This document shows, piece by piece, positions 5,294 to 42,473 of a stretch of 52,961 bases of DNA. The DNA is from Escherichia phage mEp013: the sequence record PP180002; one strand, 5' to 3'. The notes under the pieces were generated by a model. It was not told the DNA's origin, did no database searches, and saw only the letters and a list, made by a program, of their open reading frames with translations. The position numbers were made by a program, and so were the translations under genes. Position 1 is the first letter of the stretch, and each line of letters opens with the position of its first letter.

Positions 5294-6412
5294 TTACAAA
5301 ATGGAAAATTCAGGGTAATAAACAAAGCGCCCGATCTCCCCATGATCCGGGCTGTAAATAATAACCGCTGCCAGACGCCGCGACCGCCAGCCGCCATTAG
5401 TTGAGTAAGCGTCTTTACCCGCTAACGTGCCGTGATACTCAACAACGCCTAACGATGATTCGATTAGCCGTTGATGGTGCCAGTGCCCGCAATGAGCGTA
5501 AACCGCCGCAGACTTGCCAAAATCCTCACGCCAGTCAGCTACGCAAGCAGACAATAAATTTTCCGGCTTTTTGATAGTGTGCCCGTGGTGGTAAGCAAGG
5601 AATGTTTTTCCGTACTGTGTGTGGTGGACGATGGCAGGGGACACATCAACCGTCACGCGCGGTTCATCTTCGTAAAAAGCAGCCAGCGCCGCACGTAGCC
5701 AGATCATTCCTGACTGGTCGTGATTGCCGGATAACACCTGGATTTCAACATCCTTATGATTTAATAACATCTTCCCTACCGCCCGCCGGACCGACCGGAT
5801 CGCTACATAAACAAGTTTTGCGTAGCGACTATCTTGATCAAGAATGTGCCCGCTTGTTGGAGTCACCGGGACCATGCCGTCAGAGTGAAGCAGATCCCCA
5901 CCGAGAAGCAATACAGCTTTTTCAGACATCGGCGCAGCGCCTACAGCGTAGTCAAAGAAGTCATTCAACACGCGCTCAGCAATCCCAGTGTCGTAGCTCT
6001 CGCCACATTCGGCTTTATGAGCAAGCGCCCCGATATGCAGATCAAATACCGGATAAAGGGCCAGGCTTTTTTGAAAATCAATTTCAGGCACTGGCACGGC
6101 ATCCGCGCGTGGTATTTCCTCCGTGAATGCGTCGCAGGCAGCTTCCATTAGCCTTTCCATTTCATCACGGTCACGGGCTGTTTTAATCCAGCGCATGATC
6201 ACATTGCCGTTCTTATCGACTAGTAACGACTCGCCATTGACGCCAAAACCAGGCGCGCGGCGTGTTGACAATAAACCGCGTTTAGCCAGCTTTGCGCCAA
6301 GACGCTCGACGTTGCGTTTTGACATGCCATATTTTTCGGCGATCTGTTTATACGTTAAACCATTGTTATATTCAGCGATCAATTGCTCATCGCTGATTTT
6401 TCTTTGTGACAT
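5294..6412 (-). CDS. HTH domain fused to calcineurin-like metallophosphoesterase
   Basis: N-terminal HTH (LTYKQIAEKYGMSKRNVERL); phosphoesterase motifs GDLLHSD, SGNHD, GHWHH; RBS GAGGA. Confidence 0.75.
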   Translation of the reverse strand: MSQRKISDEQLIAEYNNGLTYKQIAEKYGMSKRNVERLGAKLAKRGLLSTRRAPGFGVNGESLLVDKNGNVIMRWIKTARDRDEMERLMEAACDAFTEEIPRADAVPVPEIDFQKSLALYPVFDLHIGALAHKAECGESYDTGIAERVLNDFFDYAVGAAPMSEKAVLLLGGDLLHSDGMVPVTPTSGHILDQDSRYAKLVYVAIRSVRRAVGKMLLNHKDVEIQVLSGNHDQSGMIWLRAALAAFYEDEPRVTVDVSPAIVHHTQYGKTFLAYHHGHTIKKPENLLSACVADWREDFGKSAAVYAHCGHWHHQRLIESSLGVVEYHGTLAGKDAYSTNGGWRSRRLAAVIIYSPDHGEIGRFVYYPEFSIL

Positions 6413-6445
6413 AGTGTTATTTCCTCTGGTTTACATTTTGTATAT

Positions 6446-6982
6446 TCATTGACAGCAAACAATCTCTTTATATGCCTCTTCTACCATGTCGAATACTTCC
6501 GGCCTGTAATAGAAAAACTCATTGCTGCCATCAAATTTTACAGGAAAGTTAATTTTATAATTGCTGAAATATTTATGCATCGTGCTTTCTAGTTTATGTA
6601 TATTTTCGGTTGACCCTTCTAACGTTTTCACGATACACAAATCAGGGATTCTAACGCCTGCTTTATGTGCGCTTTTTAATATTTCATTTCTTCGCTCGTT
6701 ATCCTTAACGCTTACACCGATTTTCATTTGTGTAGGTAATTCCAGATCATCAACCATGATGTAAAGTTTGCCATACTCATAACTAAGGAAACCGTATTTC
6801 GCGCATTTTGGGCAGCCGCGCCCGCGCTTAAGGTCGCTAGGAGTAGCCGACCACTCATGATCACAAACCTTACAGCGGCATGATACTTTTGTTTTGCAAT
6901 TGATAATTTCTCCCAACACTTCAACATTGGGGTTAATTCTTGAGATAGCGGCAACTTGCTCCTTATGAGTTAACTTGCGCAT
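6446..6982 (-). CDS. zinc-ribbon plus GIY-YIG-like (T5orf172/MUG113-type) protein, single-repeat paralog of 39479..40789
   Basis: One LTHKEQVAAI..C.C..C.HEW..GCPKC repeat then GKLYIMVDD..KIGVS..ERRN..EFFYY domain shared with the 436-aa protein; ATG at 6982 has RBS AGGAG. Confidence 0.7.
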   Translation of the reverse strand: MRKLTHKEQVAAISRINPNVEVLGEIINCKTKVSCRCKVCDHEWSATPSDLKRGRGCPKCAKYGFLSYEYGKLYIMVDDLELPTQMKIGVSVKDNERRNEILKSAHKAGVRIPDLCIVKTLEGSTENIHKLESTMHKYFSNYKINFPVKFDGSNEFFYYRPEVFDMVEEAYKEIVCCQ

Positions 6983-7115
6983 TGTCATAGCTCCTAAAAA
7001 CGCATCAGACGCGCTACAACGCAAAAAATCCCACCGCGTAACCCACTTGTAAGGGTGCAGTGTCTTTTTTGCGCCAGAAGCGCAATCAGGTGGCTAATTT
7101 TTGATTTACAGACTG

Positions 7116-7217
7116 GTAGGTATGTTATGGATTGACTAGAAGGAACAAACCGCCGAACAAAGCGACGTTAACAGCAATTGCCGCAGCGATGGCAAAAGCC
7201 AGGGCGAAAACGTGTTT
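7116..7217 (-). CDS. small hydrophobic membrane peptide (33 aa)
   Basis: Hand-translated MDGKHVFALAFAIAAAIAVNVALFGGLFLLVNP; RBS GAGAGGA; below the 60-aa ORF-track cutoff. Confidence 0.4.
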
Positions 7218-7359
7218 ACCGTCCATTTTTAAATCCTCTCTGTAACGCTCTATAACGAGCTAATCGCAAAAAGGTATGCAAGTGTAGCACCCAATGCTTT
7301 TTAGCTCGCTGGTGAGCTTGTTTTGTGGGTAATTTTGGATTTTTGTGTATTGTGGTTGG

Positions 7360-8358
7360 TCAAAGAGCGCCAGCGCGTGTATCACGTAGCGTTTTTGGTT
7401 TAAGCAGGAAATCAAGTGTCGCAGTAAAGCCATTGCCGAAGTAAAAATCTGAAGCCGTGTTTTTGAACGTTTCGAAGTAGGCAACAAAGCCGTTAATGCT
7501 TTTATCTTTCAGGTAGTCAGTGAACGCATAGATCTTTCGTTCAAGATCCCGATCCAGTTCAGCAGGTGGCAACAGGCCATCAAACGTGATGTTAAACTCT
7601 TCCACCACATCGGCAGCGCTTACAGTAGCTGTAACTCTTCGCCATTGTTCAGCCTTTGCCCGGTATTCATCAAAGCGGCTTACCCTGGCGATCTTTATCG
7701 GTTCCGGTTTAAACGACCATGTTTCCGCTATCCAGTCGATAACCATGATCAAATCTTCTTCAGTATATGCGCCTCGTGTTTTTGTTTTCTTCAGTAGGTT
7801 AACAAAGTATTTTTTCTCCTTATGCTTGCTATTAAACTTGTTGTTATAGTGATCGAGTACGCGCGACGCTGCCAAATCAGCCGCCCGATCTTCTTCGCTG
7901 ATAGACTCGTCTTTTTCCAATACACGAAGTGTATTGTTTTTAATGTTCTCTTTACTGGTTATATATGACTGGTTAGGGTGACTCTGTGACACTACCCCCG
8001 GTGACTCTGTGTCACTACCCTGGTGACTCTGTGACACTACCCCCGGTGTCACAGTGACACTACCATGTAATGACGGGAGGACTATTACATAGAAATTACT
8101 AGTTTGCTCTTTTCCTCCGATCAAGTATCTTGGTTGTTTAATCAACAACCCTTTTTCACAAAGTGAGTCTACAGCCCTCATAGCTGTTCTTTTGCTGATC
8201 TCACACTCCTTTGCTATGTGATGGTAAGAAGGGTAACACTCGCCGTTATCATTAGCGTTATCAGCTAACTTCAACAGCACTAGTTTGTGCATTGGGTCGC
8301 CGACCTCAGTATGGAAGACTTCTACCATTAGCCGCATACTCATAAGCATTAACCTCAT
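7360..8358 (-). CDS. replication initiator, lambda O-like (phage replisome organiser N-terminal domain) with internal iterons
   Basis: N-terminal wHTH (ISKRTAMRAVDSLCEKGLLIK); in-frame repeated GVVSQSH peptide encoded by four 22-bp iterons; start not resolved (8358 vs downstream ATGs). Confidence 0.75.
   Translation of the reverse strand: MRLMLMSMRLMVEVFHTEVGDPMHKLVLLKLADNANDNGECYPSYHHIAKECEISKRTAMRAVDSLCEKGLLIKQPRYLIGGKEQTSNFYVIVLPSLHGSVTVTPGVVSQSHQGSDTESPGVVSQSHPNQSYITSKENIKNNTLRVLEKDESISEEDRAADLAASRVLDHYNNKFNSKHKEKKYFVNLLKKTKTRGAYTEEDLIMVIDWIAETWSFKPEPIKIARVSRFDEYRAKAEQWRRVTATVSAADVVEEFNITFDGLLPPAELDRDLERKIYAFTDYLKDKSINGFVAYFETFKNTASDFYFGNGFTATLDFLLKPKTLRDTRAGAL
7977..8066. repeat. four ~22-bp iterons GGTGACTCTGTGACACTACCC inside the O-like gene (candidate origin of replication)
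   Basis: Direct repeats at 7977, 8000, 8022, 8045, each with an internal inverted GTGAC/GTCAC; mirrors lambda ori inside O. Confidence 0.7.
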
Positions 8359-8364
8359 GACGAA

Positions 8365-8610
8365 CTAAAACATTAACTGATAAACACAGAAGAAACCTGG
8401 CAGCTGACTGATTAGGCCGCTTCTTTTCAGTTGATGCAGTGCAGAGATAGTGTCACGTAACGAAATTTCGCACATTTCAGCGATTTCTTCCGGCGTTACT
8501 TCGCTTTTGCCGTTGCATCCGGCCTTTGTTGCCAGTGCAATTAAGATGAGTTTTTGCGTCGGATCATTGTTATTCAGGCGAATATCAAAAGCCTTGCGAA
8601 CGTAATACAT
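8365..8610 (-). CDS. Cro-position winged-HTH DNA-binding protein (81 aa)
   Basis: First gene divergent from cI; RBS AGGAGAAAG; aligns with N-terminal domain of the O-like protein (DP.QKLILI..EISLRD); may be Cro- or CII-like. Confidence 0.55.
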   Translation of the reverse strand: MYYVRKAFDIRLNNNDPTQKLILIALATKAGCNGKSEVTPEEIAEMCEISLRDTISALHQLKRSGLISQLPGFFCVYQLMF

Positions 8611-8915
8611 GTTTCTTTCTCCTATGGTTAGGTGAACGCGCGGGCGGGTATCCAATTAGCATTAGATAGCAGTGACTGACCGCTGAACAGATCCCGCCGT
8701 TGCGTGATATTTGTTTTTCGCTTCGCAGCGACACCGGGTTTTTAAAGAGCTTTTAAGGTATGTGCCTTTTGTGCTTTCCCTTATCTCTTTCCTTGCATCA
8801 TTGCAAGTTCGGCTTTACCTTGTCTGTAAGTTTACAGAATGGCGTTAACAGATCAAGGATTGAAAATTACATTTTGTGACTTGCATCAAAATTTTTTAGG
8901 TTATAGGGTAGCGAC

Positions 8916-9563
8916 ATGAAAACAAAATGGTATGACCTGGCAAAACAACTCATGCGGGCGCAGGGCATGAGTCAAGATTCATTGGCAGATCTCATGGGGA
9001 TCACTAAAGGCGGCTTGTCACACTGGCTTAACGGTCGCCGCGAGCCAAATCTTGAAGACATTGCGCGGATTATGCGGGCGCTTGGGCGTCGGCAGTTCAC
9101 TGTCACACATGATGGAATGGTCATTGATGACTCTGTTTCTAACACGTTGCCGGGAGCGCCACCGCGTGATTTAGGCAGTTACCCGGTTGTTGACTGGAAG
9201 GATGTAGTAAACAATATGGAAGATGCAAGGCGATCAACATTACCACACGTTACGACTAGCGTTATTTGTTCAGATGATAGTTATTGGCTGGTAGCTAAAG
9301 GCGAATCAATGAACGCGCCGCAAGGATTGAGTATACCAGCGGGGACGATGATACTTGTCGATCCGCACGCGCCAGCTATTGACGGAAAACTGGTTATAGC
9401 CCAACTGGAGGAGGGGCAGATACCGACGTTTAAACAGTTGATTATTGATGGAGGCAGAAAACTTTTGCGTTCACTGAATCCGTTGTATCCGCCAATCCCT
9501 ATGAATCCAGAATCTAAAATCATAGGCGTGGTAGTGGATGCGAAGATCGTAAACCTGCCATAA
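8916..9563 (+). CDS. cI: CI-type repressor (HTH_XRE plus S24 LexA-like peptidase domain)
   Basis: N-terminal HTH (MSQDSLADLMGITKGGLSHWLNG); C-terminal autocleavage domain with GESM Ser and downstream Lys. Confidence 0.85.
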   Translation: MKTKWYDLAKQLMRAQGMSQDSLADLMGITKGGLSHWLNGRREPNLEDIARIMRALGRRQFTVTHDGMVIDDSVSNTLPGAPPRDLGSYPVVDWKDVVNNMEDARRSTLPHVTTSVICSDDSYWLVAKGESMNAPQGLSIPAGTMILVDPHAPAIDGKLVIAQLEEGQIPTFKQLIIDGGRKLLRSLNPLYPPIPMNPESKIIGVVVDAKIVNLP

Positions 9564-9568
9564 ACACT

Positions 9569-9593
9569 AGCCGCCTGATGGCGGCTTTTCTTT
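9569..9593 (+). terminator. rho-independent terminator after cI
   Basis: AGCCGCC-TGAT-GGCGGCT hairpin followed by TTTTCTTT. Confidence 0.7.
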
Positions 9594-9686
9594 GCCGGAA
9601 AAACACCAAAACGTAAACAGAAAACGTTATTTATTGTTTAAATATCAATAACATATAAAATATTTTAAAAAAGTATACAAAATGGA

Positions 9687-9715
9687 TTGACTCGGTGTTT
9701 TACGGGGCGTATATT
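9687..9715 (+). promoter_or_regulatory. PL-like sigma70 promoter (TTGACT-17-TATATT)
   Basis: Near-consensus hexamers with 17-nt spacer; flanked by 8-bp inverted repeat TTGACTCG/CGAGTCAA; TATACAAAATGG motif directly upstream. Confidence 0.65.
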
Positions 9716-9756
9716 GCGAGTCAAAGGAGGAAGCAAGGCAGGGAAAGAAGGTTACT

Positions 9757-9794
9757 TGCTCTTTAATAATCTGGTCAGCCGCTGGAAGTGCGGC
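9757..9794 (+). promoter_or_regulatory. nutL-like site: boxA (TGCTCTTTAATAA) plus boxB hairpin (GCCGC-TGGAAGT-GCGGC)
   Basis: boxA nearly identical to rrn/lambda boxA consensus; 5-bp stem 7-nt loop hairpin 8 nt downstream; sits between promoter and N-like gene. Confidence 0.55.
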
Positions 9795-9850
9795 AATTAA
9801 CGAAGATGATTTTTTATTAAGTATCATCAAGGATATAAGGAGATCAGATC

Positions 9851-10141
9851 ATGACAGTTACAATCATGTATGGCAAATGTGACAGTAAACTGAATGCCAG
9901 GGAACGCAGAAGAATAAAAAGAGAAAACGAAAGAAAATCATCACCTGCAATCAATAAAACGGACAATGTGGATAAAGCCATTCGCTTTGCAAACGAGGAA
10001 AGATGCAAACCCAATGGCATTAAAGAACGTCGCAAAGGATCAGTTAAATGGTATAAGGAAAACGAAAGCGGCAACTACTACCACGCAACGCAACCACGCC
10101 AGTTAGGGGAAAAACCCCTTGATAAAGTCCGTTACCATTAA
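9851..10141 (+). CDS. N-like antitermination protein (arginine-rich motif)
   Basis: 96 aa, basic; N-terminal ARM NARERRRIKRENERK; first gene after PL/nutL; strong RBS TAAGGAG. Confidence 0.5.
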   Translation: MTVTIMYGKCDSKLNARERRRIKRENERKSSPAINKTDNVDKAIRFANEERCKPNGIKERRKGSVKWYKENESGNYYHATQPRQLGEKPLDKVRYH

Positions 10142-10171
10142 TACAAAATGTAAATAATCGGAGGTGACATT

Positions 10172-10294
10172 ATGGTTATTCATGCGCTCCAATTCAAACT
10201 GGCGGTAGCGGAAATGCTTCATGATGCCGAAATGTGGAGCGCCGCGAATAAAGCCTTGTATGTAGTGTTAACAGCGAAGGAGATCAAAGAGTGA
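10172..10294 (+). CDS. hypothetical small protein (40 aa)
   Basis: Hand-translated; strong RBS GGAGGTG; stop overlaps erf GTG start. Confidence 0.45.
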   Translation: MVIHALQFKLAVAEMLHDAEMWSAANKALYVVLTAKEIKE

Positions 10295-10932
10295 AAACAG
10301 AGTTACACAAAAAACTGTGGACGATTCAGCAAACGCTGAATGCACCAAAAGGGCAATACAATAAATTCGGTGGATATTCATACAGATCTGCGGAGGATAT
10401 TTTAGAGGCAGTTAAGCCACTTCTACAGAATGTCACGTTAATGGTTAGCGATGAAATTGTTTTAATCGGTGATCGCTATTATGTGAAAGCAACGGCAACG
10501 CTAAGCGACGGCGAGGATTCAATTTCAGCCACTGCGTTCGCGCGTGAGGAAAAAGAGCAAAAAGGAATGACGGCAGGGCAGCTAACTGGCGCGACATCAA
10601 GTTACGCGCGGAAATATGCCCTGAACGGTCTGTTCTGTATAGACGATGCGAAAGATTTAGACACTGACGCTTACGCGAAGCAGACAGGCCAGCAGCCTCG
10701 CCAGCAGAAAAACACACCAAAACAACAACCACAGCAGCAGAAAGCGCAGCCAAATCCTGATGAAGTATTAGCACGTTTCTGTGATGCAGCAGCGAAAGCG
10801 CCTGATGCTAATAAGTTACGCGAGATCTTCGGCAAGTGCTGGAAGCTGTTACCTGAAAATTCAGAGCAACGAGTCAAAGCAAAAGATATTTACCAAATAA
10901 GGCTTGAGGAGTTAAATGGAAGTATTAACTAA
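10291..10932 (+). CDS. erf: Erf-family single-strand annealing protein
   Basis: LNAPK.QYN.FG.Y.YRS.EDILE.VKPLL N-terminal pattern as in P22 Erf (from memory); Q/P-rich C-terminus; RBS AAGGAG with GTG start. Confidence 0.75.
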   Translation: MKTELHKKLWTIQQTLNAPKGQYNKFGGYSYRSAEDILEAVKPLLQNVTLMVSDEIVLIGDRYYVKATATLSDGEDSISATAFAREEKEQKGMTAGQLTGATSSYARKYALNGLFCIDDAKDLDTDAYAKQTGQQPRQQKNTPKQQPQQQKAQPNPDEVLARFCDAAAKAPDANKLREIFGKCWKLLPENSEQRVKAKDIYQIRLEELNGSIN

Positions 10933-11524
10933 GACATGTAATAAATGCGGTAGGCGACTACCGCTTGATTGTTTTCCTAAACATAAAGGCTGCAAATATG
11001 GTGTTACTAGCACATGCGTTGAGTGCACTAAAATAAGCGTGAAAGCATTTAGGGAAAGGAATAAAGATAAAATAGCTGAACGAAATAGAAAATGGAGGGA
11101 AGAACATAAGGAAGAGATACGAGAGAAAGATAAGAAATACTACGAAGAACATAAGAAAGAATGTAATGATCGCGCGAAAAAATATAGAGAAAACAACAGG
11201 AAGAAAATTATAGAATATAAAAATGATTGGGTTAAAAGAAACGAAGAAAGATTGAAGGAGTACCGGAGAATATATCACGAAGATTATAAAGAAAGAAATA
11301 AGGCTGAACTAAAAGCAAGAACAAAACTAAGTAACGCCATTAGAGATGGCAAGATATTTAGGCCTGATAGGTGTGATCGTTGCGGAAATAAATGTACTCC
11401 TGATGGTCATCACTGGAATTATGCGTTTCCGCTTAACGTTATTTGGTTATGTAGATCTTGTCACAAAATAGTTCATGTTAAATTCGGGTGTATCCACGAA
11501 GATATTAACGGGGAGATCAATTAA
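10916..11524 (+). CDS. HNH endonuclease-like protein
   Basis: Cys-rich N-terminus; lysine-rich centre; C-terminal CDRCG..HHWNY..WLCRSCH HNH-type motif. Confidence 0.6.
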   Translation: MEVLTKTCNKCGRRLPLDCFPKHKGCKYGVTSTCVECTKISVKAFRERNKDKIAERNRKWREEHKEEIREKDKKYYEEHKKECNDRAKKYRENNRKKIIEYKNDWVKRNEERLKEYRRIYHEDYKERNKAELKARTKLSNAIRDGKIFRPDRCDRCGNKCTPDGHHWNYAFPLNVIWLCRSCHKIVHVKFGCIHEDINGEIN

Positions 11525-11988
11525 TGAGCTTAAATTCAATCACGCTGGGTGGTAACGTTGGTAACGATCTTGAAGTGCGCTACACGCAAAACGGGAAGGC
11601 GATTGGTAGTTTTCCGTTAGCTGTAACGAATGGCTACGGTGATAATAAGCGGACAATGTGGATCACTTGCCTGGTATTTGGTGAGCGTGCGGAAAAATTA
11701 GCTCCACATATCCGCAAGGGTGGAAAAATAGTGGTAAGCGGTCGCCTGGATGTTCGGCAATATGACCGGAACGACGGCACGAAGGGGACTGCGGTAGAAG
11801 TGGCGGTTAACGAATTTGAATTCATGAATGTTAACCAACAAGGCCAGCAGCAAGGACAGCAGCAGAAAGCGCCGCCGCAGCAGCATAATAATAACGGGAA
11901 TAATGTTCCTCCTGATTTCGATGACGACATCCCATTTGCTCCTATGGGGTTACAATATGGCAAAAGCAGGATCTACGCGCTATCTTGA
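11524..11988 (+). CDS. ssb: single-stranded DNA-binding protein
   Basis: OB-fold SSB pattern, Gln/Gly linker, acidic tail DDDIPF. Confidence 0.9.
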   Translation: MSLNSITLGGNVGNDLEVRYTQNGKAIGSFPLAVTNGYGDNKRTMWITCLVFGERAEKLAPHIRKGGKIVVSGRLDVRQYDRNDGTKGTAVEVAVNEFEFMNVNQQGQQQGQQQKAPPQQHNNNGNNVPPDFDDDIPFAPMGLQYGKSRIYALS

Positions 11989-12250
11989 TGCGCCGCCGAT
12001 TCCGCGAACAAAAGAGCAAGTATTAAAAGAAGCCCGTGATCAAATCGATCATGGGCTTTTTTTATGCGGCACGGCAGCGGAACGGATGGCGAAAAGATTT
12101 AGTGACCTGTACGCAAAACAAATATGGTTCGACAACTGGCAGGCAAGTTTTTATCCACTGCAAAGAAAACCGGATATGCACTGGCCTGAATATGTCGATC
12201 CACGTATGCGCAAATATCGCGGGCGTATGGGCCAGGTCATTAACGATTAA
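11957..12250 (+). CDS. hypothetical protein (97 aa)
   Basis: ATG at 11957 inside ORF 11828..12250; overlaps ssb 3' end. Confidence 0.5.
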   Translation: MAKAGSTRYLDAPPIPRTKEQVLKEARDQIDHGLFLCGTAAERMAKRFSDLYAKQIWFDNWQASFYPLQRKPDMHWPEYVDPRMRKYRGRMGQVIND

Positions 12251-12264
12251 TGAGGTATCAAATC

Positions 12265-12489
12265 ATGATCGAAGAAAAAGAAGTTGATAAAGAAATGCCT
12301 AACTCATCTGATGACTATGTCACTTTTAACGGCGGCCTGTATGAGTTCGAAACGTCTGCAGGCTGGCACGATAAATGGCCTATGCCAACGCGCAAGGAAT
12401 TAAGCGAACGTAAAACATTTGGCGAAGATGCCGAACGCCTGGCTAATAACAAATGGCTTGATAAGTTCATTGCGGAGGGTGGCAAATGA
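12265..12489 (+). CDS. hypothetical protein (74 aa)
   Basis: ATG at 12265 with GAGG RBS (alternative 12250). Confidence 0.5.
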   Translation: MIEEKEVDKEMPNSSDDYVTFNGGLYEFETSAGWHDKWPMPTRKELSERKTFGEDAERLANNKWLDKFIAEGGK

Positions 12490-12599
12490 ACCTTGCAAAA
12501 ATTGCCGCATTGCTTGCGGCTTTGTCTATCGCTGTGCTGTATCTCAGCGTATCGCTTTATATCACGGTAGCGATCATTAAACTCATTGCTAACATGTGA
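12486..12599 (+). CDS. small hydrophobic membrane peptide (37 aa)
   Basis: MNLAKIAALLAALSIAVLYLSVSLYITVAIIKLIANM; ATGA overlap with upstream stop. Confidence 0.45.
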   Translation: MNLAKIAALLAALSIAVLYLSVSLYITVAIIKLIANM

Positions 12600-12607
12600 G
12601 GTTAATC

Positions 12608-12730
12608 ATGAAAGTCGGTAAGGATATTGTGACGGTCGCGTTTTGCATTATTTGCTTCCTGTTTTCGGTTGTATTTTGTGGCGCACTTGCGGCGGTGATC
12701 AGCTTTATTGGTAAAGGGGTGATATTATGA
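12608..12730 (+). CDS. small hydrophobic membrane peptide (40 aa)
   Basis: MKVGKDIVTVAFCIICFLFSVVFCGALAAVISFIGKGVIL; ATGA overlap with next gene start. Confidence 0.45.
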   Translation: MKVGKDIVTVAFCIICFLFSVVFCGALAAVISFIGKGVIL

Positions 12731-12999
12731 TTCCGTGGAATGCAAAAGCTGGTGATCTGGTTGTTTTGCCTGCATATCGTAGTGATCCTGGTCTTGTGGT
12801 GCTGAATAAAGCATGTATAGAAATTGAGCGCCCGATCCTTGTCAAATACCTGGACGGAACAATTATAGAGCCTATTTTCTTCGACAAGATTGAGCTGAAA
12901 GCCCGTAATGTTCGCGTTAAGCCGTTCCGGGCTTATGTTGAAGACCACTGGCGGAAATTGTTCGCCGGACTGAATGGGATGTACGGCGTATGGCTATAA
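12727..12999 (+). CDS. hypothetical protein (90 aa)
   Basis: ORF in tightly packed early operon. Confidence 0.5.
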   Translation: MIPWNAKAGDLVVLPAYRSDPGLVVLNKACIEIERPILVKYLDGTIIEPIFFDKIELKARNVRVKPFRAYVEDHWRKLFAGLNGMYGVWL

Positions 13000-13181
13000 A
13001 ATTGGTGAAAGTTAAAGATTTAAAAGGCGGCGAAAAACTCCGCGCATGGTTCGGATATGAATTTATTGCTACTGCCTTTCATTTCGGGAAAGGGGGCCAG
13101 GTAACAATTTTTGATGAAGATTACGACGAAGTTGGGCAATGGCATCTTGAGCAATATATCGAGGTGTTAAATGAAAATTAA
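12990..13181 (+). CDS. hypothetical protein (63 aa)
   Basis: ORF in tightly packed early operon. Confidence 0.45.
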   Translation: MAIKLVKVKDLKGGEKLRAWFGYEFIATAFHFGKGGQVTIFDEDYDEVGQWHLEQYIEVLNEN

Positions 13182-13503
13182 ATTCCATAAAGCATATGAT
13201 AGCCAGACAAACAAGCTATCACTATTTATTGAGTTCGAACGCCGGATCGTGGTTGTTCCTTATTCTCGGCGCTTTAATGATGCAGCAGGGCGGAGACAGT
13301 TCGCGTTAGATATGTTGTTACGCGGTTGCGGCCTTATGCGCCCGCTATCTGATTTAAAACGGATGATGCCTGGATCGTTCGGTCAGATTGATGAAATTGA
13401 AGTAAGCCAGGAAGAGCTAAAACGGGCGCGTGATTTGTTCCTTTCAAGCGAAGGAAACCCGTTTAATCCAGAAACTGAAATGAAATGGCATCACCCACTA
13501 TAA
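13171..13503 (+). CDS. hypothetical protein (110 aa)
   Basis: ORF in tightly packed early operon. Confidence 0.5.
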   Translation: MKIKFHKAYDSQTNKLSLFIEFERRIVVVPYSRRFNDAAGRRQFALDMLLRGCGLMRPLSDLKRMMPGSFGQIDEIEVSQEELKRARDLFLSSEGNPFNPETEMKWHHPL

Positions 13504-13516
13504 AAGGATAAATATC

Positions 13517-14137
13517 ATGAACGACATCAAAACAGCTTATTCACTCGGCAGCGAAGGCATGTTAATCACTCGCTATACTGAAGATGCAAGTTTTCATGAA
13601 GTGGAAATTAAAGATTATCACGAAGTATTGAAAGATATGGAGGCTGGCAAGTATGACGCTGATTTGAATCTGGCGTTACAGATTGTTGATATTGTGATGG
13701 ACGCGTCGATCCGTGATTATGTGTCTTTAGACGCTGAAGAAAAAACGGCTGTAGCTCGTTATGTCTTCTGCCTTACTTTCGTGAAACGCATGGAAGAGGA
13801 ATTTGGTCGCGTGCCAGTTCCGGAAGAAATTGACCCGCTGGCGTTCGGAAGCGCTGTTATTTTCCCGTTAGATGAAAATCATACTGGTAGCGTTGCGCTG
13901 CATTCTATGCGCGGCGTAATGAAAAGCGTCTTTGAGGCTAAGGCGCTACAGAAGTGCGTTGATGAAGGGCACAACGAGGAAGACGTAAAGGAGATCATGC
14001 CGTTGTTTTATGGCGAAATGGTTGGTAATAACATGCGTGCAAATGATTTAGGTGTGCAGGCGGCCATATCCGTTCTTAATGAAGTACGGAAAATGGCACA
14101 GCCAATGCCTGAACAGGGAAAACGTGTACTGCATTAA
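13517..14137 (+). CDS. hypothetical protein (206 aa)
   Basis: Long ORF, acidic; no recognisable motif. Confidence 0.6.
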   Translation: MNDIKTAYSLGSEGMLITRYTEDASFHEVEIKDYHEVLKDMEAGKYDADLNLALQIVDIVMDASIRDYVSLDAEEKTAVARYVFCLTFVKRMEEEFGRVPVPEEIDPLAFGSAVIFPLDENHTGSVALHSMRGVMKSVFEAKALQKCVDEGHNEEDVKEIMPLFYGEMVGNNMRANDLGVQAAISVLNEVRKMAQPMPEQGKRVLH

Positions 14138-14235
14138 CATCGTGATTGCTATCACATGAATATACATTTTGTGTTGTGATCGCATATCCGTTTTGTAAAC
14201 TGAAATTAAAGGTTTACAGCGCGGAGGAAAGCAAG

Positions 14236-14454
14236 ATGGAACGTGAATACATGCTTTATTGCGTTGAGGGTGGCGTAGGTAGCGATGCCTACGTCGCAGG
14301 GAAAAGCTATCCAGCCGATGAAGTGCTTTCTAATATGCACTTCCGGGAAAATGAAAACCAGGTGTCTGTGTGGAAGCGATGCGTTGATGGTATTGAAGTC
14401 GTTAGCCTTGAAAGATATTTGGGTAAATTTGACTACGCATTGATCGAGGCTTAA
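14236..14454 (+). CDS. hypothetical protein (72 aa)
   Basis: ATG at 14236 with RBS GGAGGA; promoter-like TTGTGA-16-TAAACT at 14174-14201 upstream. Confidence 0.45.
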   Translation: MEREYMLYCVEGGVGSDAYVAGKSYPADEVLSNMHFRENENQVSVWKRCVDGIEVVSLERYLGKFDYALIEA

Positions 14455-14456
14455 CT

Positions 14457-14549
14457 ATGGACGAATCATTGCTATTCATGTGCATTTGCTGGGGTTTTAT
14501 TGCCTTATGCCTGTTTATCAGGTGGTTTATTGAATACCATATGAGGTGA
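14457..14549 (+). CDS. small hydrophobic membrane peptide (30 aa)
   Basis: MDESLLFMCICWGFIALCLFIRWFIEYHMR; follows upstream stop by 2 nt. Confidence 0.4.
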   Translation: MDESLLFMCICWGFIALCLFIRWFIEYHMR

Positions 14550-14553
14550 TTTT

Positions 14554-14745
14554 ATGAAAAAGGTTGGCGAATACATGATACCGGATAACGCTAAATTAGC
14601 CGGGATAGGTCAATTTGGTTGTTATTACTATAACTGTGTCGGTGATATTTATCAGGTCAGTATTGTTGGTGGTGTACAGCATTTTCGTCTTATGCACTTT
14701 GAATTAAGCGCACTTAAAAAGGCGGTGTTAATGTATGAAGTTTAA
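14554..14745 (+). CDS. hypothetical protein (63 aa)
   Basis: RBS GAGGTG. Confidence 0.5.
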   Translation: MKKVGEYMIPDNAKLAGIGQFGCYYYNCVGDIYQVSIVGGVQHFRLMHFELSALKKAVLMYEV

Positions 14746-14938
14746 ACAGTATAAAGAATGGAAGATTCCAGAAGAAGCAACAAAGGCAGCGCCCGGAAGT
14801 TTTTCGGGCGTTTACTTTTATATGGAAGGTAAATGGTATTTCGGCAGCAGGCCGGATCACTATTATCAAGAAGTATGCAAATCTCACACATGGGACATTA
14901 AGGAACGCGTGCAAGGTGGTGTAATAGACGAGGTTTAA
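14735..14938 (+). CDS. hypothetical protein (67 aa)
   Basis: ORF overlapping neighbours. Confidence 0.45.
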   Translation: MKFKQYKEWKIPEEATKAAPGSFSGVYFYMEGKWYFGSRPDHYYQEVCKSHTWDIKERVQGGVIDEV

Positions 14939-14939
14939 A

Positions 14940-15176
14940 ATGGTTAAGAGCTTTTTTAACTGGTTGTGTGCGTGGCTTTTGGCTACGATTTTTGTTTTCC
15001 TGGCGGCCCTGACTGTTATCGTTGTTATCATGCTGGGGGCTATGTTTATTACGTGGTCGCTGCCTGAATTTAACGACATTGGGAATATTCTTTTTGCAGC
15101 CCGCGCTTTATTGGCTGTTAGCGCATTCATTGGTTTTTGCTGGACTGTGGCGCCTGATTGGGGTGATGAATGGTGA
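14940..15176 (+). CDS. hypothetical membrane protein (78 aa, two predicted TM helices)
   Basis: Two hydrophobic stretches. Confidence 0.5.
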   Translation: MVKSFFNWLCAWLLATIFVFLAALTVIVVIMLGAMFITWSLPEFNDIGNILFAARALLAVSAFIGFCWTVAPDWGDEW

Positions 15177-15180
15177 TCAT

Positions 15181-15414
15181 ATGGCTTTGTTCAATATGTC
15201 AGAACTGCAATTTAATGCCGTAAAAGCAGCCGCCCGCGCTGCACTTTCTGCTTGCAAAGCGGAGGTAGAGAAAAACGGCTACAGCGATAAAGCTACGCGG
15301 CTGATATTAGAAAAGCATTATCGCAAGGTTGCCCCGCTAATCAGCATTGAGCGTTTTGTCTGGTTGGTTGGGTATCTCAATAACCGATGGGGGACTGACC
15401 AGGATTATTTTTAG
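15181..15414 (+). CDS. hypothetical protein (77 aa)
   Basis: ATG at 15181 inside ORF 15022..15414. Confidence 0.45.
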   Translation: MALFNMSELQFNAVKAAARAALSACKAEVEKNGYSDKATRLILEKHYRKVAPLISIERFVWLVGYLNNRWGTDQDYF

Positions 15415-15426
15415 TGGGGGATAGCA

Positions 15427-15966
15427 ATGAAAAATGATTTTGGAGGCAGTAATACGCCAAAAGAGATTAAAGACCTGTGGCAGACGCCGAAACCAGTTTT
15501 CAGGGGAATGGATCGTGAATTTGAATTTGTCGCTGACGTTGCGGCAAATAAGGAAAATGCGCTAATTCCGCGATATATAACCGAAGAAATGGACACGCTA
15601 CATTATCCGTGGGGAGCGGTGGCAATGCCTGGTGAATATGTATGGATGAATCCGCCATATTCGAATCCTGGGCCATTCGTTGACAAGGCGGCGCTAGAAC
15701 ATCAACGGAATCACATCGGTTGCGTAATGTTATTGCCCGCTGACGTTTCTGTTAGCTGGTTCATGAACGGCGTGGAGACTGCAAACGAATGCCGATTAAT
15801 CACGCGCGGGCGTCTGGCGTTTATCAATGCTGCGACTGGTAAGCCAGTAAGCGGAAACAACAAAGGCAGCTTGTTTTTGATCTGGCATCCACGGTGCAGA
15901 CATGAATGTATTTTTACACACATAACGCGTAAAGAGCTATATGCAAGAGGTGCAGAAAATGACTAG
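15427..15966 (+). CDS. phage Dam-like DNA N6-adenine methyltransferase
   Basis: 179 aa; catalytic NPPY-type motif (WMNPPYS); RBS GGGGG. Confidence 0.75.
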   Translation: MKNDFGGSNTPKEIKDLWQTPKPVFRGMDREFEFVADVAANKENALIPRYITEEMDTLHYPWGAVAMPGEYVWMNPPYSNPGPFVDKAALEHQRNHIGCVMLLPADVSVSWFMNGVETANECRLITRGRLAFINAATGKPVSGNNKGSLFLIWHPRCRHECIFTHITRKELYARGAEND

Positions 15967-16456
15967 TGCAGCAGATTTATTACGACTTGCAGCGGAAACA
16001 ATAGAGCAAAGGGGTAAACAAAACGGCTACGACAGAAAAGAGGAAAAATCGGCGCCCAAAATAGCCACTATATACAACGCTAAGAAGGGGGCAAATTTAA
16101 CACCACTTGATGTATGGGATCTAATGATTTGCCTTAAGGAGGCGCGATTAGAGGCCATTTTGGTTAATGGAAGCGATCCGACAGACACCCTGATAGATTT
16201 AATTAGCTACAGCGCACTGAAAGCGGAACAAATATTAACGGAGCGCGAGAAAGAGCAAAAGAAAAAACAGGACGCTTTTGATCTCCCTGTTGGTGGACTA
16301 GTTAAAGGTGAGGCGATAACCAGTTGTAAGGGATTGCCACCTTCTATGCTTGCACCTCAATGTGGCTGCATTCCAACTAGTGTTGGCGTGAAGTTTAATA
16401 GGGAAAATGCTATTCGTGACAAGAGGTATGACCCAAATGAAAAAGGTGGCAATTGA
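15959..16456 (+). CDS. conserved phage protein (LTP.DVW..M..LK.ARL family; function unknown)
   Basis: Recurring phage pattern RGK..GY...LTPLDVWDLMICLKEARL...DLISYSALKAE; RBS AAGAGG. Confidence 0.55.
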   Translation: MTSAADLLRLAAETIEQRGKQNGYDRKEEKSAPKIATIYNAKKGANLTPLDVWDLMICLKEARLEAILVNGSDPTDTLIDLISYSALKAEQILTEREKEQKKKQDAFDLPVGGLVKGEAITSCKGLPPSMLAPQCGCIPTSVGVKFNRENAIRDKRYDPNEKGGN

Positions 16457-16940
16457 CAGGTTACTGGCCTGCGTTTATGTCGCCGTTTTCGTGATCATCA
16501 ACCTTATTGTTAACCATTGCGGCCCGTGGGTGATTCCGATCACTACGGTAGCCGCTGTGTGTGTCAATATGATGATCCGTGACTTCCTGTTGTATGACGG
16601 CGGCCTTAAATGGTCGGCTACAACATGCGCAGCCGCTGGCGCAATTACGGTGCTGATAAATTACGATGCCGGTATGGTGGCGATAGCGTCATTAGTTGCG
16701 GTTGTTTCCGGTGCGCTTATTTCTGGCGGCGTTTACCGGGTTTTACCTGATGATTTCGATTCTAAGCGCTGGCCTGCAAATATAGCGTCCGCCATTGGCG
16801 ATGCGTTAATTTTCCCGACGCTATCGTTTATGGCATTTATGCCTGAAATATCAGCTATGCAATTCATCTCAAAAATGGCAGCGGTAACGGTGATCACGAT
16901 CATTATGCGCCGCTATTTCACGTTTGAGGGCAAAAAATGA
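16437..16940 (+). CDS. YhhQ/DUF165 (VUT-family) queuosine-precursor transporter-like membrane protein
   Basis: Polytopic; motifs resemble YhhQ family (IPITTVAAVCVNMMIRDFLLYDGG, RWPANIASAIGDALIFPTLSF); family call from memory. Confidence 0.5.
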   Translation: MKKVAIDRLLACVYVAVFVIINLIVNHCGPWVIPITTVAAVCVNMMIRDFLLYDGGLKWSATTCAAAGAITVLINYDAGMVAIASLVAVVSGALISGGVYRVLPDDFDSKRWPANIASAIGDALIFPTLSFMAFMPEISAMQFISKMAAVTVITIIMRRYFTFEGKK

Positions 16941-17701
16941 GCAAGGCTAAACACTGGTTAAATAACTGGCTTAGAAGTTGGGTTGTATGGTCGCTGTACG
17001 ACGGCAGCGGGTACGCCGTTAAAGATTGGGCGGAGGCTGGATATAAGTGCTATTGCTTCAACTATGACGGCGCAAATCACGGCGATTATGACGGGGTAAA
17101 AATAATTCATCCAAATATTGAATACGTTAACGTCTGGATTGATAGCCACTTCCTGGTAATGTTCTCCCCTGAATTGTCTGTTTATCCAGAGCCTGACATC
17201 ATCATTGGCTTTCCTCCATGCGACGATCTCGCTGTTTCTGGTGCTGCCTGGTTTTCTGTTAAGCGTGAAAAAGATCCTAACTTCCAGGTGAAGGCGGCGA
17301 ATAGCGCCAAACTGGTAGAAAAACTGGCGAATATGTATAACGTGCCGTGGATGGTGGAAAATCCGGTTGGCGTACTGTCAACGTTATGGCGCAAACCTGA
17401 TTTTATTTTCAACCCGTGCGCTTACGGTGGCTACCTGCCGGAAGATGACAAACATCCCGCTTTCCCTGAATACATCGCCGACCGCGACGCGTACACGAAG
17501 AAAACTTGTATCTGGTGTGGTAACGGATTTAAACAGCCGATTTTTAGACCTGTATCACTGACTGACGAACCTGGTAACAGTCAACAGCACAGAAAGTTAG
17601 GTGGCAAAAGCAAGCGCACTAAGATGATCCGCTCACTAACGCCGCGCGGCTTTGCCCGTGCTGTATTCCTTGCTAACCATGACCGCGCTTTACCGGACTG
17701 A
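16937..17701 (+). CDS. compact C5-cytosine methyltransferase-like protein (254 aa)
   Basis: Motif I-like LYDGSG, IV-like GFPPCDDLAVSG, VI-like ENPVG, C-terminal LTPRGFARA; ATGA coupling to YhhQ-like gene; short for a canonical enzyme. Confidence 0.5.
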   Translation: MSKAKHWLNNWLRSWVVWSLYDGSGYAVKDWAEAGYKCYCFNYDGANHGDYDGVKIIHPNIEYVNVWIDSHFLVMFSPELSVYPEPDIIIGFPPCDDLAVSGAAWFSVKREKDPNFQVKAANSAKLVEKLANMYNVPWMVENPVGVLSTLWRKPDFIFNPCAYGGYLPEDDKHPAFPEYIADRDAYTKKTCIWCGNGFKQPIFRPVSLTDEPGNSQQHRKLGGKSKRTKMIRSLTPRGFARAVFLANHDRALPD

Positions 17702-23235: not shown

Positions 23236-23436
23236 ATGTTCGACAGAATACGGGAGGCGTGTGCGTATGTGACTGGGGCCGTAACTGCTTTTTTCGGCGC
23301 TATAACCATCAATGACGTCGCTGTTTTCGTTGGTATCTTATCAACCATAGGCACATTTGCCGTTAATTATTACTTCAAATCACAGGAGAACAAGCGAGCG
23401 CAAGAGGAACACGACGCGCGAATGGGGAATAAGTAA
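23236..23436 (+). CDS. holin
   Basis: 66 aa, two hydrophobic TM segments and charged C-terminus; directly precedes endolysin; RBS GGAGGA. Confidence 0.7.
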
Positions 23437-23437
23437 A

Positions 23438-23929
23438 ATGATTAGCCAATCGCTGAAAAACAAGATTGTTGCGGCGGCGGCTGGTGGGGCGATCGCTATT
23501 GCGGCGGTGATGATTAAGCCATTAGAGGGCGTGGAATACGATCCTTATCGTGATGTTGTTGGTGTATGGACTGTTTGCTATGGTCACACAGGAAAAGACA
23601 TTATGTTGGGCAAGACATACACGCAATCAGAATGCGATGCTTTGTTAAATAAAGATCTACACAAGACCGCAAAAGCGATTGACCCATATATCAAAGTTGA
23701 AATATCAGATTTTACCCGCGCTGCACTTTATTCATTCGCCTATAACGTAGGCGCGACCAACTTCAAAACATCAACCTTATTAAAACTGCTCAATGACGGC
23801 AAGAAATCAGAGGCGTGCGCACAGCTTAAGCGCTGGGTATACGCTGGCGGTAAGAAGTGGCAAGGCCTGGTAAACCGCCGCGAGGTTGAATATGCCGTTT
23901 GCGAATGGGGGGAAACGTGGACAAGGTGA
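23438..23929 (+). CDS. SAR endolysin (T4-lysozyme-like muramidase with signal-anchor-release domain)
   Basis: N-terminal Gly/Ala-rich weakly hydrophobic segment then lysozyme-like catalytic region ([21 protein letters not shown]); ATG at 23438 two nt after holin stop. Confidence 0.8.
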
Positions 23930-42308: not shown

Positions 42309-42336
42309 CAACCCCGCTTCGCGCGTGGTTTTCTTT
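42309..42336 (+). terminator. terminator-like hairpin (imperfect copy of the J terminator)
   Basis: AACCCCGC-TTCG-CGCGTGGTT (one stem mismatch) plus TTTTCTTTT; part of 36-bp repeat shared with 49833-49868. Confidence 0.4.
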
Positions 42337-42380
42337 TAGTAGTTAATATGCATCAAACTCATTGGGTGAGCGTGCGCCAT

Positions 42381-42473
42381 ATTATTGGCTATCGCCGCCC
42401 AGTCCCAATCGGCAGCATGAACGCCAAATACTATCAGTCCCATTATTATTAGCGCCAAAACTTCTATTTTCAT
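42381..42473 (-). CDS. hypothetical small hydrophobic peptide (30 aa)
   Basis: Hand-translated MKIEVLALIIMGLIVFGVSCCRLGLGGDSQ; RBS AGGTGA. Confidence 0.3.

Follow-up and report, generated by a model that had tools for sequence, protein, structure and literature searches.

Kil of phage lambda, encoded by a small gene in the early operon of this temperate coliphage, is a soluble antagonist of FtsZ and not a transmembrane (TM) peptide. Tiny single-TM inhibitors of cell division are known from Caulobacter (SidA, 29 aa) and from the Bacillus phage SPO1 (gp56), and these block late membrane proteins of the divisome. T4 Imm has a role at the inner membrane in blocking DNA entry and in exclusion, and MgrB, AcrZ and SgrT are, besides MgtS and MgtR, bacterial small membrane-protein regulators. 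Small membrane proteins of at most 50 aa were reviewed to bind larger membrane proteins, as exemplified by MgtS and MgtR acting on magnesium transporters (PMC12648545). Type I toxins are shorter than 60 aa and have a hydrophobic alpha-helical TM domain with cationic residues near the C-terminus (PMC8309996). They include TisB, Hok, Ldr, Ibs, ShoB, Fst and BsrG, they possess an antisense RNA and a transcription unit of their own, and some of these systems reside in prophages. Holins and pinholins are small hydrophobic phage membrane proteins as well, which are encoded in the lysis cassette of the late operon.

The window analyzed here is the whole stretch of 52,961 nucleotides from Escherichia phage mEp013 (PP180002), in which a first-pass annotation had seen four tiny ORFs for single-TM peptides among the early genes. 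All four are present and each encodes one strongly hydrophobic helix, as judged by an ORF check and by hydropathy (Table 1). The positions given for sp37, sp40 and sp30 were exact, whereas sp33 had been placed at 7116..7217 and thus 9 nt off. The four peptides have GRAVY values of 1.1-2.0, their best 19-residue Kyte-Doolittle windows reach 2.25-2.83, and the charged residues are confined to the ends, with K, R or H close to the C-terminus in sp30, sp37 and sp40. For sp40, AlphaFold2 predicted one helix as a single chain (residues 5-38, mean pLDDT 86). As the N-terminus of sp30 is acidic (MDES) and its C-terminus basic (RWFIEYHMR), an N-out/C-in topology is predicted. The window contains 12 ATG ORFs of 25-50 aa with similar hydropathy, several of them inside larger genes, compared to about one in first-order Markov simulations.

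Table 1. Features of the early operons and of the lysis region in the window.
Feature	Position	Strand	Description	Sequence
sp37 gene	12486..12599	+	37 aa, predicted single-TM	MNLAKIAALLAALSIAVLYLSVSLYITVAIIKLIANM
sp40 gene	12608..12730	+	40 aa, predicted single-TM	MKVGKDIVTVAFCIICFLFSVVFCGALAAVISFIGKGVIL
sp30 gene	14457..14549	+	30 aa, predicted single-TM	MDESLLFMCICWGFIALCLFIRWFIEYHMR
sp33 gene	7125..7226	-	33 aa, predicted single-TM, leftward replication operon	MDGKHVFALAFAIAAAIAVNVALFGGLFLLVNP
Coupling junction, 79-aa gene/sp37	12470..12489	+	conserved in an alignment of 14 sequences	GCGGAGG...AAATGA
Coupling junction, sp30/downstream 63-aa gene	14541..14556	+	invariant in 14 sequences	ATGAGGTGA(n3-4)ATG
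78-aa multi-TM protein, rightward operon	14940..15176	+	phrog_14059 (E 4e-12), no function assigned in PHROGs	
Ipe homologue	15181..15414		directly 3' of the 78-aa multi-TM gene	
Lysis cassette	23236..24387		66-aa holin-like gene, SAR-endolysin-like gene and Rz/Rz1; about 9 kb from the peptide ORFs	

The rightward early operon encodes the N-like antiterminator Gp17, a Kil-like ORF, Erf, an HNH endonuclease, SSB, Abc2, the 79-aa protein, sp37 and sp40, followed by five more genes, sp30 and further genes including those for Ipe and Dam. According to the paper on this phage group, the operon is antiterminated by Gp17, nutR1 preceding gp17 and nutR2 following the methyltransferase gene (PMC11893012). 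Predicted terminators, T4 in abc2 and T5 in the DUF7274 gene, flank sp37, sp40 and sp30. A sub-threshold Rfam match to Thr_leader at 11960..12065 (E <= 1, search over 6000..17000) coincides with the predicted terminator in abc2 and not with the peptides, and it was discarded. The same applies to a hairpin within sp37 (12504..12520), listed as 'TERM_2' in the 2018 mEp021 record, as its position and its T-tail are not conserved in relatives; it seems to result from the Ala codons. In some genomes PGAP calls the 78-aa multi-TM gene further downstream 'cell division protein FtsK'.

Within this polycistronic operon sp37, sp40 and sp30 lie 0-8 nt from their neighbours. The stop/start overlap that had been proposed for the tiny ORFs is found as ATGA at two junctions, where the start codon of sp37 shares bases with the TGA of the preceding 79-aa gene and the stop codon of sp40 with the ATG of the 90-aa gene that follows, while the other junctions are spaced, with 8 nt between sp37 and sp40 and with spacers of 2 nt and 4 nt at sp30. 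The Shine-Dalgarno (SD) sequence of sp37, GGAGG, lies within the 3' end of the 79-aa gene, that of sp40 (TGAGG) consists of the last codon of sp37 plus its stop, and sp30 has GAGG 7 nt upstream and ends in the codons ATG AGG TGA, which serve as SD for the next gene. The ORF sp33 follows 134 nt 3' of the replication-initiator gene, has its own SD (GAGAGGA) and precedes a conserved hairpin with a T-run. SDs and junctions are conserved in the 14-sequence alignment. The translational embedding in the early operons was borne out. We suppose that sp37, sp40 and sp30 are translated by coupling, via SDs that the preceding gene carries in its 3' end and via ATGA overlaps or 2-8 nt spacers, and owing to this coupling to their operon neighbours they would appear early after infection or induction, alongside the products of the recombination and host-takeover genes; sp33 would be made from the leftward replication operon. 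The 134-nt leader of sp33 folds well (z = -5.2), with neither covariation nor a promoter-like site; its sequence is conserved, but the covariation term is +0.9, and it was not retained as a structured RNA.

Conservation of the frames in related prophages, which had been suggested as a check, was found in about 50 genomes with nucleotide identities of 55-100%, in which the frames are intact and indels are in-frame only. These comprise 13 GenBank/RefSeq relatives and the IMG/VR contigs, in which the frame is intact in 37/37 cases for sp37, 37/37 for sp40 and 38/39 for sp30, the latter being present at 39/39 loci with one truncated copy. Pooled pairwise Nei-Gojobori estimates, obtained with a custom script from sequences that are non-independent, gave in-frame dN/dS values of 0.147 (sp37), 0.321 (sp40), 0.175 (sp30) and 0.118 (sp33, 10 sequences), which is the range of the flanking accepted genes, compared to 0.70-2.48 in the two other frames of the same loci (sp37 1.0 and 1.5, sp40 0.81 and 1.18, sp33 2.5 and 2.2). 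The low values partly reflect compositional constraint because TM segments accept many hydrophobic substitutions. Conservation is also position-specific. Among 25 distinct DNA versions of sp30, 18 third positions are variable versus three second positions, and 23/30 residues are invariant, 21 of them in the 23-residue stretch M8-R30. The C-terminal half of sp37 (Y19-M37) accounts for 13 of the 19 invariant residues, and sp40 is invariant at M1, V3, K5, C13, F17 and G25. Inside the helices, the polar or small residues Y19, S23 and T27 are conserved in sp37, C13, G25, A28 and A29 in sp40, and N20 and G25-G26 in sp33, which suggests specific helix packing beyond bare hydrophobicity; the hydrophobic helix itself is kept in every variant examined. 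Judged by this frame-specific conservation, sp37, sp40, sp30 and sp33 are genuine conserved genes for predicted single-helix membrane peptides.

The window phage belongs to the mEp021 group (mEpimmI) of temperate coliphages. The block is carried by 6/6 GenBank phages of this group and by 35 of 5,426 complete E. coli genomes, and it is matched by 39-40 IMG/VR contigs, mostly of 50-57 kb, whereas no match was obtained in 185,579 species-representative genomes (GTDB). The flanking genes are likewise confined to the mEpimmI group, and tblastn with the two genes that flank the block in 50,697 phage records returned only the same six phages. The four genes, found at the same position in mEpimmI phages and prophages and absent elsewhere in the data searched, are lineage-restricted, near-universal accessory genes of mEpimmI (mEp021-like) temperate coliphages. 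The sp40 family comprises 71 clusters of 37-48 aa, the named sources of which are all E. coli, coliphages or a Caudoviricetes MAG, and a full HMMER profile scan of 1.84 billion proteins yielded no relatives of sp40 outside of this family. Searches with the four peptides in Pfam, PHROGs, NCBIfam and PADLOC gave nothing significant, and a sequence profile search in PDB gave no match. As no homologue of known function was found, the mechanism proposed below is drawn by analogy from a functional class.

The first-pass annotation had compared the peptides to Kil and to type I toxins. Kinship to Kil was not confirmed, as 0/4 peptides match Pfam Lambda_Kil (PF06301) or phrog_2055 even at E <= 1. They share with the lambda gene the small size, the early operon of a temperate coliphage and the same general neighbourhood as the recombination genes, but sp37, sp40, sp30 and sp33 have no homology to it. 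By its sequence, the Kil-like candidate gene of this phage is a separate ORF (10172..10294) directly 3' of the N-like gene, the only tested ORF with a Kil-family match, i.e., weak ones to Lambda_Kil (E 2e-4, 21.2 bits and so short of the cutoff of 27.6 bits) and to phrog_2055 (E 1.3e-3). The supplement of the group paper does not specify which gene is meant by 'Kil-like' (PMC11893012). The resemblance to type I toxins applies to the peptides themselves, which have 30-40 aa, the hydropathy given above and C-terminal K, R or H in sp30, sp37 and sp40, and it does not extend to the architecture. The 0-8 nt spacing leaves no room for an own promoter or 5' leader at sp37, sp40 and sp30, and neither an RBS-sequestering leader nor an own transcription unit was found for these three, which are parts of a polycistronic operon. 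No promoter-like site was detected immediately upstream of any of the four ORFs in a sigma-70 consensus scan, nor was a sigma-70-like site detected on the opposite strand at or adjoining them, although such a scan may miss weak or other-type promoters. The nearest opposite-strand site (14655..14627, minus strand) lies inside the hypervariable downstream gene, and the region has 9 promoter-like sites compared to 15.1 expected. For the peptides no Rfam match to an antitoxin RNA was obtained (E <= 1, 6000..17000), and synonymous divergence is not reduced at their ORFs. By sequence and gene arrangement the four peptides are thus not related to Kil, nor are they type I toxins of the classical kind.

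We favour, with a confidence slightly above even, that the four peptides are single-pass inner-membrane microproteins, made early, which act by specific helix-helix binding to larger membrane proteins. Each peptide would insert into the inner membrane as an alpha-helix and, through sequence-specific helix-helix packing, contact an integral membrane protein that is larger and encoded by the host or by the phage, and the activity or stability of the bound partner would be changed in a manner similar to MgtS and MgtR. For the four peptides we infer membrane insertion, translation in vivo, a binding partner and a phenotype. They resemble MgtS and MgtR in having at most 50 aa, one TM helix (predicted by hydropathy, and by AlphaFold2 for sp40) and no enzymatic domain; unlike these bacterial regulators, to which they have no sequence similarity, they are encoded in a phage early lytic operon instead of a stress regulon, the class being defined by function. 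If they shared the mode of SidA and SPO1 gp56, to which the likeness is one of size and TM helix only, a 'Kil-like' phenotype could arise via a membrane target. If their partners are defined membrane proteins of the host, the peptides would be compact inhibitors or probes, of natural origin, for the inner-membrane machinery of E. coli, and a function would be added to a gut-prevalent coliphage group in which most early genes are unannotated.

Sequence comparison further indicates that sp37 probably acts jointly with sp40. The sequence types of the two occur together (adjusted mutual information 0.86) and their distance matrices correlate with r = 0.57 (Mantel 0/2000), the highest value among adjacent gene pairs, compared to r = 0.01 for sp37 and the overlapping 79-aa gene. 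The correlation could instead reflect linkage or shared mosaic blocks, and in some genomes (L010 and L011) sp37 and sp40 differ markedly in their divergence from the window. It is conceivable, though rather unlikely, that sp37 and sp40 co-evolve as the two peptides of a heteromer and that sp30 and sp33 are further 'membrane adaptors', each docking early on a specific host inner-membrane machine; the divisome, a DNA-entry transporter, FtsH or a membrane-bound defence sensor would be such machines. If so, these peptides would be a family of small phage effector proteins not described before, the host targets of which could be identified. A rare natural fusion of sp30 with the downstream gene (P0106) was given little weight as evidence for a partnership because the divergence of the two is not correlated (r = 0.09).

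Instead of binding specific partners, the peptides might damage the membrane in a generic way, as pore-forming or depolarising agents of a type I toxin- or holin-like kind, so that the host is slowed or arrested early in lytic growth and a Kil-like effect is reached by another route. Small or polar motifs, i.e., the Ala-rich face of sp37 and N20 in sp33, could support self-association, and overexpression of Ipe, which is encoded in the same operon, was described in the group paper to result in haemolysis via HlyE vesicles and in cell death (PMC11893012). We nevertheless regard this explanation as doubtful, since no antisense RNA, no promoter of their own and no leader sequestering the RBS was found for sp37, sp40 and sp30, and uncontrolled early depolarisation would lower the phage yield. 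Moreover, the phage has its own lysis genes at 23.2-24.4 kb (holin-like, SAR-endolysin-like and Rz/Rz1), and in contrast to holins, which are encoded late beside the endolysin, the four ORFs reside in early operons. The position-specific conservation of sp30 also exceeds what a generic hydrophobic pore helix needs. Decidedly unlikely is a role in superinfection exclusion or anti-defence at the inner membrane during lytic growth, by which the entry of competitor DNA or a membrane-bound defence would be blocked. The tested exclusion function of the group is attributed to Lpp lipoproteins encoded elsewhere in the genome (PMC11893012), neither PADLOC nor PHROGs gave an exclusion match, and the consensus scan showed no promoter for expression in the lysogen. 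What speaks for it are the neighbours Abc2 (anti-RecBCD) and Dam methylase with their counter-defence functions, and the divergence of sp37, sp40 and the 78-aa membrane gene, the last being the most divergent of the block (mean pairwise nucleotide identities of 73.5-74.5% versus 88-93% for several neighbours), a pattern common in genes of phage/host conflict. However, positive selection is not indicated, dN/dS being well below 1, and sp30 and sp33 show high conservation and no diversification.

Two further explanations assign no role to the peptides. The ORFs might serve to keep ribosomes on the mRNA, by coupling and by shielding it from Rho-dependent polarity, and to provide the next SD, and the ends of sp37 (ATG TGA GG) and of sp30 (ATG AGG TGA) are indeed downstream SDs with invariant junctions. 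Purifying selection on amino acids along the full length instead of at the 3' ends alone, dN/dS of about 1 or more in the other frames, indels that are always in-frame and a helix kept in every variant make this highly improbable. That the four are chance untranslated ORFs in hydrophobic-prone sequence is hardly credible at all: coding DNA does give rise to short hydrophobic ORFs in its other frames, as those of the 12 that lie within larger genes illustrate, but these four fill otherwise gene-free gaps on the operon strand with conserved SDs and are intact under frame-specific purifying selection across the divergence described above.

The expectation that standard gene callers would miss these ORFs holds for PGAP and fails for PHANOTATE and Prodigal. 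Among the RefSeq prophage loci, which are annotated by PGAP, sp37 is annotated in 0/8, sp30 in 0/8, sp40 in 1/8 and sp33 in 0/5, and the 2018 mEp021 record contains 0/4, so that the RefSeq annotation of mEpimmI prophages systematically lacks four conserved genes that are found by phage-specific callers. Comparative frame analysis, combining dN/dS with junction conservation, suffices to validate such small genes. PGAP names the 90-aa gene after sp40 'toxin-antitoxin system toxin subunit', a name for which NCBIfam and Pfam HMMs gave no support. No function for the four peptides is given in the GenBank records or in the examined passages of the group paper, and the word 'transmembrane' does not occur in that paper (PMC11893012). 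As small orphan membrane proteins of a phage that are already deposited as hypothetical, the four are nothing out of the ordinary, and genes for tiny phage membrane proteins of this sort are common. The PHANOTATE-based records of mEp044, mEp010, mEp554 and MagusPhagus annotate 4/4, and variants of sp37, sp40 and sp30 were deposited by Prodigal-type pipelines on hundreds of E. coli contigs. The sp37, sp40 and sp30 of the window match hypothetical proteins of mEpimmI phages exactly, with identical sequences deposited for mEp013, mEp044 and mEp515: sp37 is identical to WWQ70309.1, WWQ70418.1 and WWQ70525.1, and sp30 to WWQ70316.1 (mEp013_35). Identical or near-identical proteins at the same positions are mEp044_27, _28, _34 and _13, and sp33 is annotated as mEp044_13, mEp554_13 and MagusPhagus CDS0006.

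The four small open reading frames sp37, sp40, sp30 and sp33 (named by their length in amino acids) are all present in the mEp013 sequence (see table); the first-pass annotation had placed the first three correctly and sp33 wrongly at 7116..7217. Each peptide contains one long hydrophobic stretch with charged residues at the termini only, and the AlphaFold2 model of sp40 is a single helix (residues 5-38, pLDDT 86), which bears out their description as single-TM peptides.

Features of the mEp013 sequence; numbered rows give the order of the rightward operon, obtained from family searches of the neighbouring genes
No.	Feature	Position	Strand	Remarks
1	N-like antiterminator gene	9851..10141	+	
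2	40-aa Kil-like ORF	10172..10294	+	weak Lambda_Kil and phrog_2055 matches
3	Erf			
4	HNH endonuclease			
5	SSB			
6	Abc2 anti-RecBCD			
7	79-aa gene			DUF2737-like
8	sp37	12486..12599	+	ORF present
9	sp40	12608..12730	+	ORF present
10	Five function-unknown genes			
11	sp30	14457..14549	+	ORF present
12	63-aa gene			
13	DUF7274 gene			
14	78-aa multi-TM protein gene	14940..15176	+	
15	Ipe homologue			
16	Dam methylase			
	Terminator-like hairpin	~7030..7100	-	just 3' of sp33
	sp33	7125..7226	-	ORF present
	Spacer, replication-initiator gene to sp33	7227..7360	-	134 nt
	Thr_leader match	11960..12065	+	in abc2
	GC hairpin, then TTTGTCT	12504..12520	+	inside sp37
	90-aa gene	12727..12999	+	3' of sp40
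	Lysis cassette	23236..24387	+	66-aa two-TM holin-like gene; endolysin with N-terminal SAR-like hydrophobic segment; Rz
	Rz1 lipoprotein	24107..24319		LSGC lipobox; embedded in Rz
	HNH endonuclease	25223..25729		
	35-aa hydrophobic ORF	25916..26023	+	with SD; mEp044_74
	26-aa hydrophobic ORF	26010..26090	+	overlaps the preceding ORF
	Terminase small subunit	26393..26893		
	45-aa ORF	42336..42473	-	with SD; annotated mEp554_102

Judged by their conservation and pattern of substitution, all four ORFs are real genes. Conservation in related prophages, proposed earlier as a check, was found: the three rightward ORFs are intact in 13/13 GenBank/RefSeq relatives, with length variation in frame only (6 nt in sp37, 3 nt in sp40). 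In IMG/VR, sp30 occurs on 39 contigs and sp37 on 40, mostly of about 50-57 kb; sp37 and sp40 are both intact in all 37 loci long enough to span them, and sp30 in 38 of 39. Pooled Nei-Gojobori dN/dS in frame is 0.147 (sp37), 0.321 (sp40) and 0.175 (sp30) and 0.70-1.75 in the two other frames, accepted flanking genes showing 0.10-0.42; for sp33 it is 0.118 in frame vs 2.2-2.5 off frame (10 sequences). An alignment of six sp30 variants leaves 23 of 30 residues invariant, and its 25 distinct DNA versions vary at 18 third but 3 second positions. Frames intact in both sets of relatives and low in-frame dN/dS rule out chance ORFs, the least credible reading of all. Spacer ORFs kept solely for translational coupling might be suspected from the junctions: the stop of the 79-aa gene overlaps the sp37 ATG (ATGA), the start of the 90-aa gene overlaps the sp40 stop, and the final codons of sp37 (ATG TGA GG) and sp30 (ATG AGG TGA) form the next gene's Shine-Dalgarno sequence, both junctions being kept in 14/14 aligned sequences. 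The frame-specific purifying selection and the third-position bias of sp30 nevertheless reject this reading, which we hold to be very improbable. The stop/start overlap proposed for the peptides is confined to the junctions of sp37 with the 79-aa gene and of sp40 with the 90-aa gene; elsewhere there are gaps of 8 nt (sp37-sp40), 2 and 4 nt (around sp30) and 134 nt (replication-initiator gene to sp33, which has its own Shine-Dalgarno sequence GAGAGGA).

That standard gene callers miss these genes is true of PGAP, which in RefSeq loci called sp37 in 0/8, sp30 in 0/8, sp33 in 0/5 and sp40 in 1/8 (UMNK88, WP_000868625.1), and of the 2018 mEp021 record (0/4), but PHANOTATE-type annotations contain 4/4. 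Public protein sets hold sp37 variants on 767 contigs and sp30 variants on 429, labelled 'hypothetical' or 'uncharacterized', and sp30, sp37 and sp40 of the window are identical to deposited proteins (sp30 being 'mEp013_35', WWQ70316.1). The genes are known to exist as uncharacterised hypothetical proteins, and are orphan small phage membrane proteins: for none of the four did searches of Pfam, PHROGs, NCBIfam, PADLOC and PDB sequences yield a significant match. A word-indexed search gave 71 sp40 clusters (37-48 aa), all named sources being E. coli, coliphage or Caudoviricetes MAG; an exhaustive HMMER search covering 1.84 billion representatives revealed no sp40 relatives beyond its own family, and sp30 was absent from the species-representative genomes searched. 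The flanking genes are as narrowly distributed. The surrounding 2.6-kb stretch matches six GenBank phages, mEp044 (96%), mEp010, mEp554, mEp021, mEp515 and MagusPhagus, and prophages of 35/5,426 complete E. coli genomes (82-91% identity). All belong to the mEpimmI phages, which PMC11893012 describes as Nus-dependent, non-lambdoid temperate coliphages.

According to the same paper, the rightward operon is antiterminated by Gp17, with nutR1 5' of gp17 and nutR2 3' of the methyltransferase gene. As the three rightward peptide genes are bracketed by two predicted terminators, T4 within abc2 and T5 within the DUF7274 gene, and the scan revealed no promoter-like site directly 5' of any of the three, sp37, sp40 and sp30 should, from the annotation and PMC11893012, be delayed-early products that are off in the lysogen. 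The lysis cassette lies about 9 kb away. The sub-threshold Rfam Thr_leader match in abc2 (29.3 bits, E 0.033) coincides with T4, a Rho-independent terminator according to ARNold predictions for mEp044 and mEp010. The hairpin inside sp37 is 'TERM_2' of the 2018 mEp021 record; relatives carry Ala-codon GC hairpins nearby and the T-tail is not conserved. Both PGAP and the mEp021 record call the 90-aa gene 'toxin-antitoxin system toxin subunit'; it has no match in NCBIfam, Pfam or PADLOC, its sole match being the function-unknown phrog_28396. No gene of the block is more divergent than that of the 78-aa multi-TM protein, which falls into 7 types at 80% amino acid identity and has a dN/dS of 0.42; its PGAP label in several genomes, 'cell division protein FtsK', has no profile support here.

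The first-pass annotation was sound as an observation and in part as an interpretation. Kinship with Kil does not hold, as none of the four peptides matches Kil profiles; the putative Kil-like candidate of this phage is the separate ORF directly 3' of the N-like antiterminator gene, with matches to Lambda_Kil (E 2e-4; 21.2 bits, curated cutoff 27.6), phrog_2055 'Kil protein for bacterial septation inhibition' (E 1.3e-3) and phrog_34942 (E 4e-28). The likeness to type I toxins extends to peptide-level features but not to gene layout: sp37, sp40 and sp30 leave no space for a promoter or leader, no opposite-strand promoter-like site was seen at or adjoining them, Rfam gave no antitoxin-type match at the peptide genes, and their synonymous divergence is normal. 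Upstream of sp33 there is a well-folding leader (-30.9 kcal/mol, z = -5.2 vs shuffles), centred on the inverted repeat AGCGAGCTAA...TTAGCTCGT, but with neither covariation nor a visible promoter; because its sequence is kept in 9 relatives without covariation, it may be a DNA-level element (e.g., origin-related) rather than an RNA structure. The conserved compound hairpin past sp33 ends in GGTGGGA and a T5-6 run; its large loop kept the simple scan from picking it up.

The four ORFs very probably encode real TM microproteins. Conserved polar and small residues within a TM helix are expected for specific helix-helix packing, and position-specific conservation beyond hydrophobicity is seen in the C-terminal 23 residues of sp30, Y19, S23, T27 and the C-terminal half of sp37, C13, G25, A28 and A29 of sp40, and N20 and G25-G26 of sp33. 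The peptides would be early-expressed inner-membrane microproteins binding larger membrane proteins, as bacterial small membrane-protein regulators do (a class precedent; review PMC12648545). We lean slightly toward this explanation taken whole; its mode of action, drawn by analogy, is tentative. Generic membrane-damaging peptides are an unlikely alternative reading, and exclusion or anti-defence factors appear less probable still.

Mean pairwise nucleotide identity is 73.5% for sp37 and 74.5% for sp40, among the most divergent of the block, and 92.8% for sp30, among the most conserved. The sequence types of sp37 and sp40 co-occur (adjusted mutual information 0.86) and their distance matrices correlate (r = 0.57, Mantel 0/2000), the highest value among adjacent pairs vs r = 0.01 for sp37 and the overlapping 79-aa gene, which suggests a two-peptide unit. 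For sp30 and its downstream gene no correlated divergence was found. In P0106, a rare natural variant (4 public contigs; window 14457..14745), a stop-loss TGA->TGG lets sp30 read on in frame into the ~64-aa protein downstream; the resulting 96-aa membrane-anchored fusion is compatible with the predicted N-out/C-in topology of sp30.

Further small ORFs occur elsewhere in the window. The overlapping 35-aa and 26-aa hydrophobic ORFs, both without a PHROG match, sit between the second HNH endonuclease gene of the table and the terminase small subunit gene. The 45-aa ORF has an N-terminus resembling a signal peptide (MKIEVLALIIMGLIVFGVHAADW...) and belongs to a moron-like unit that follows the tail genes.
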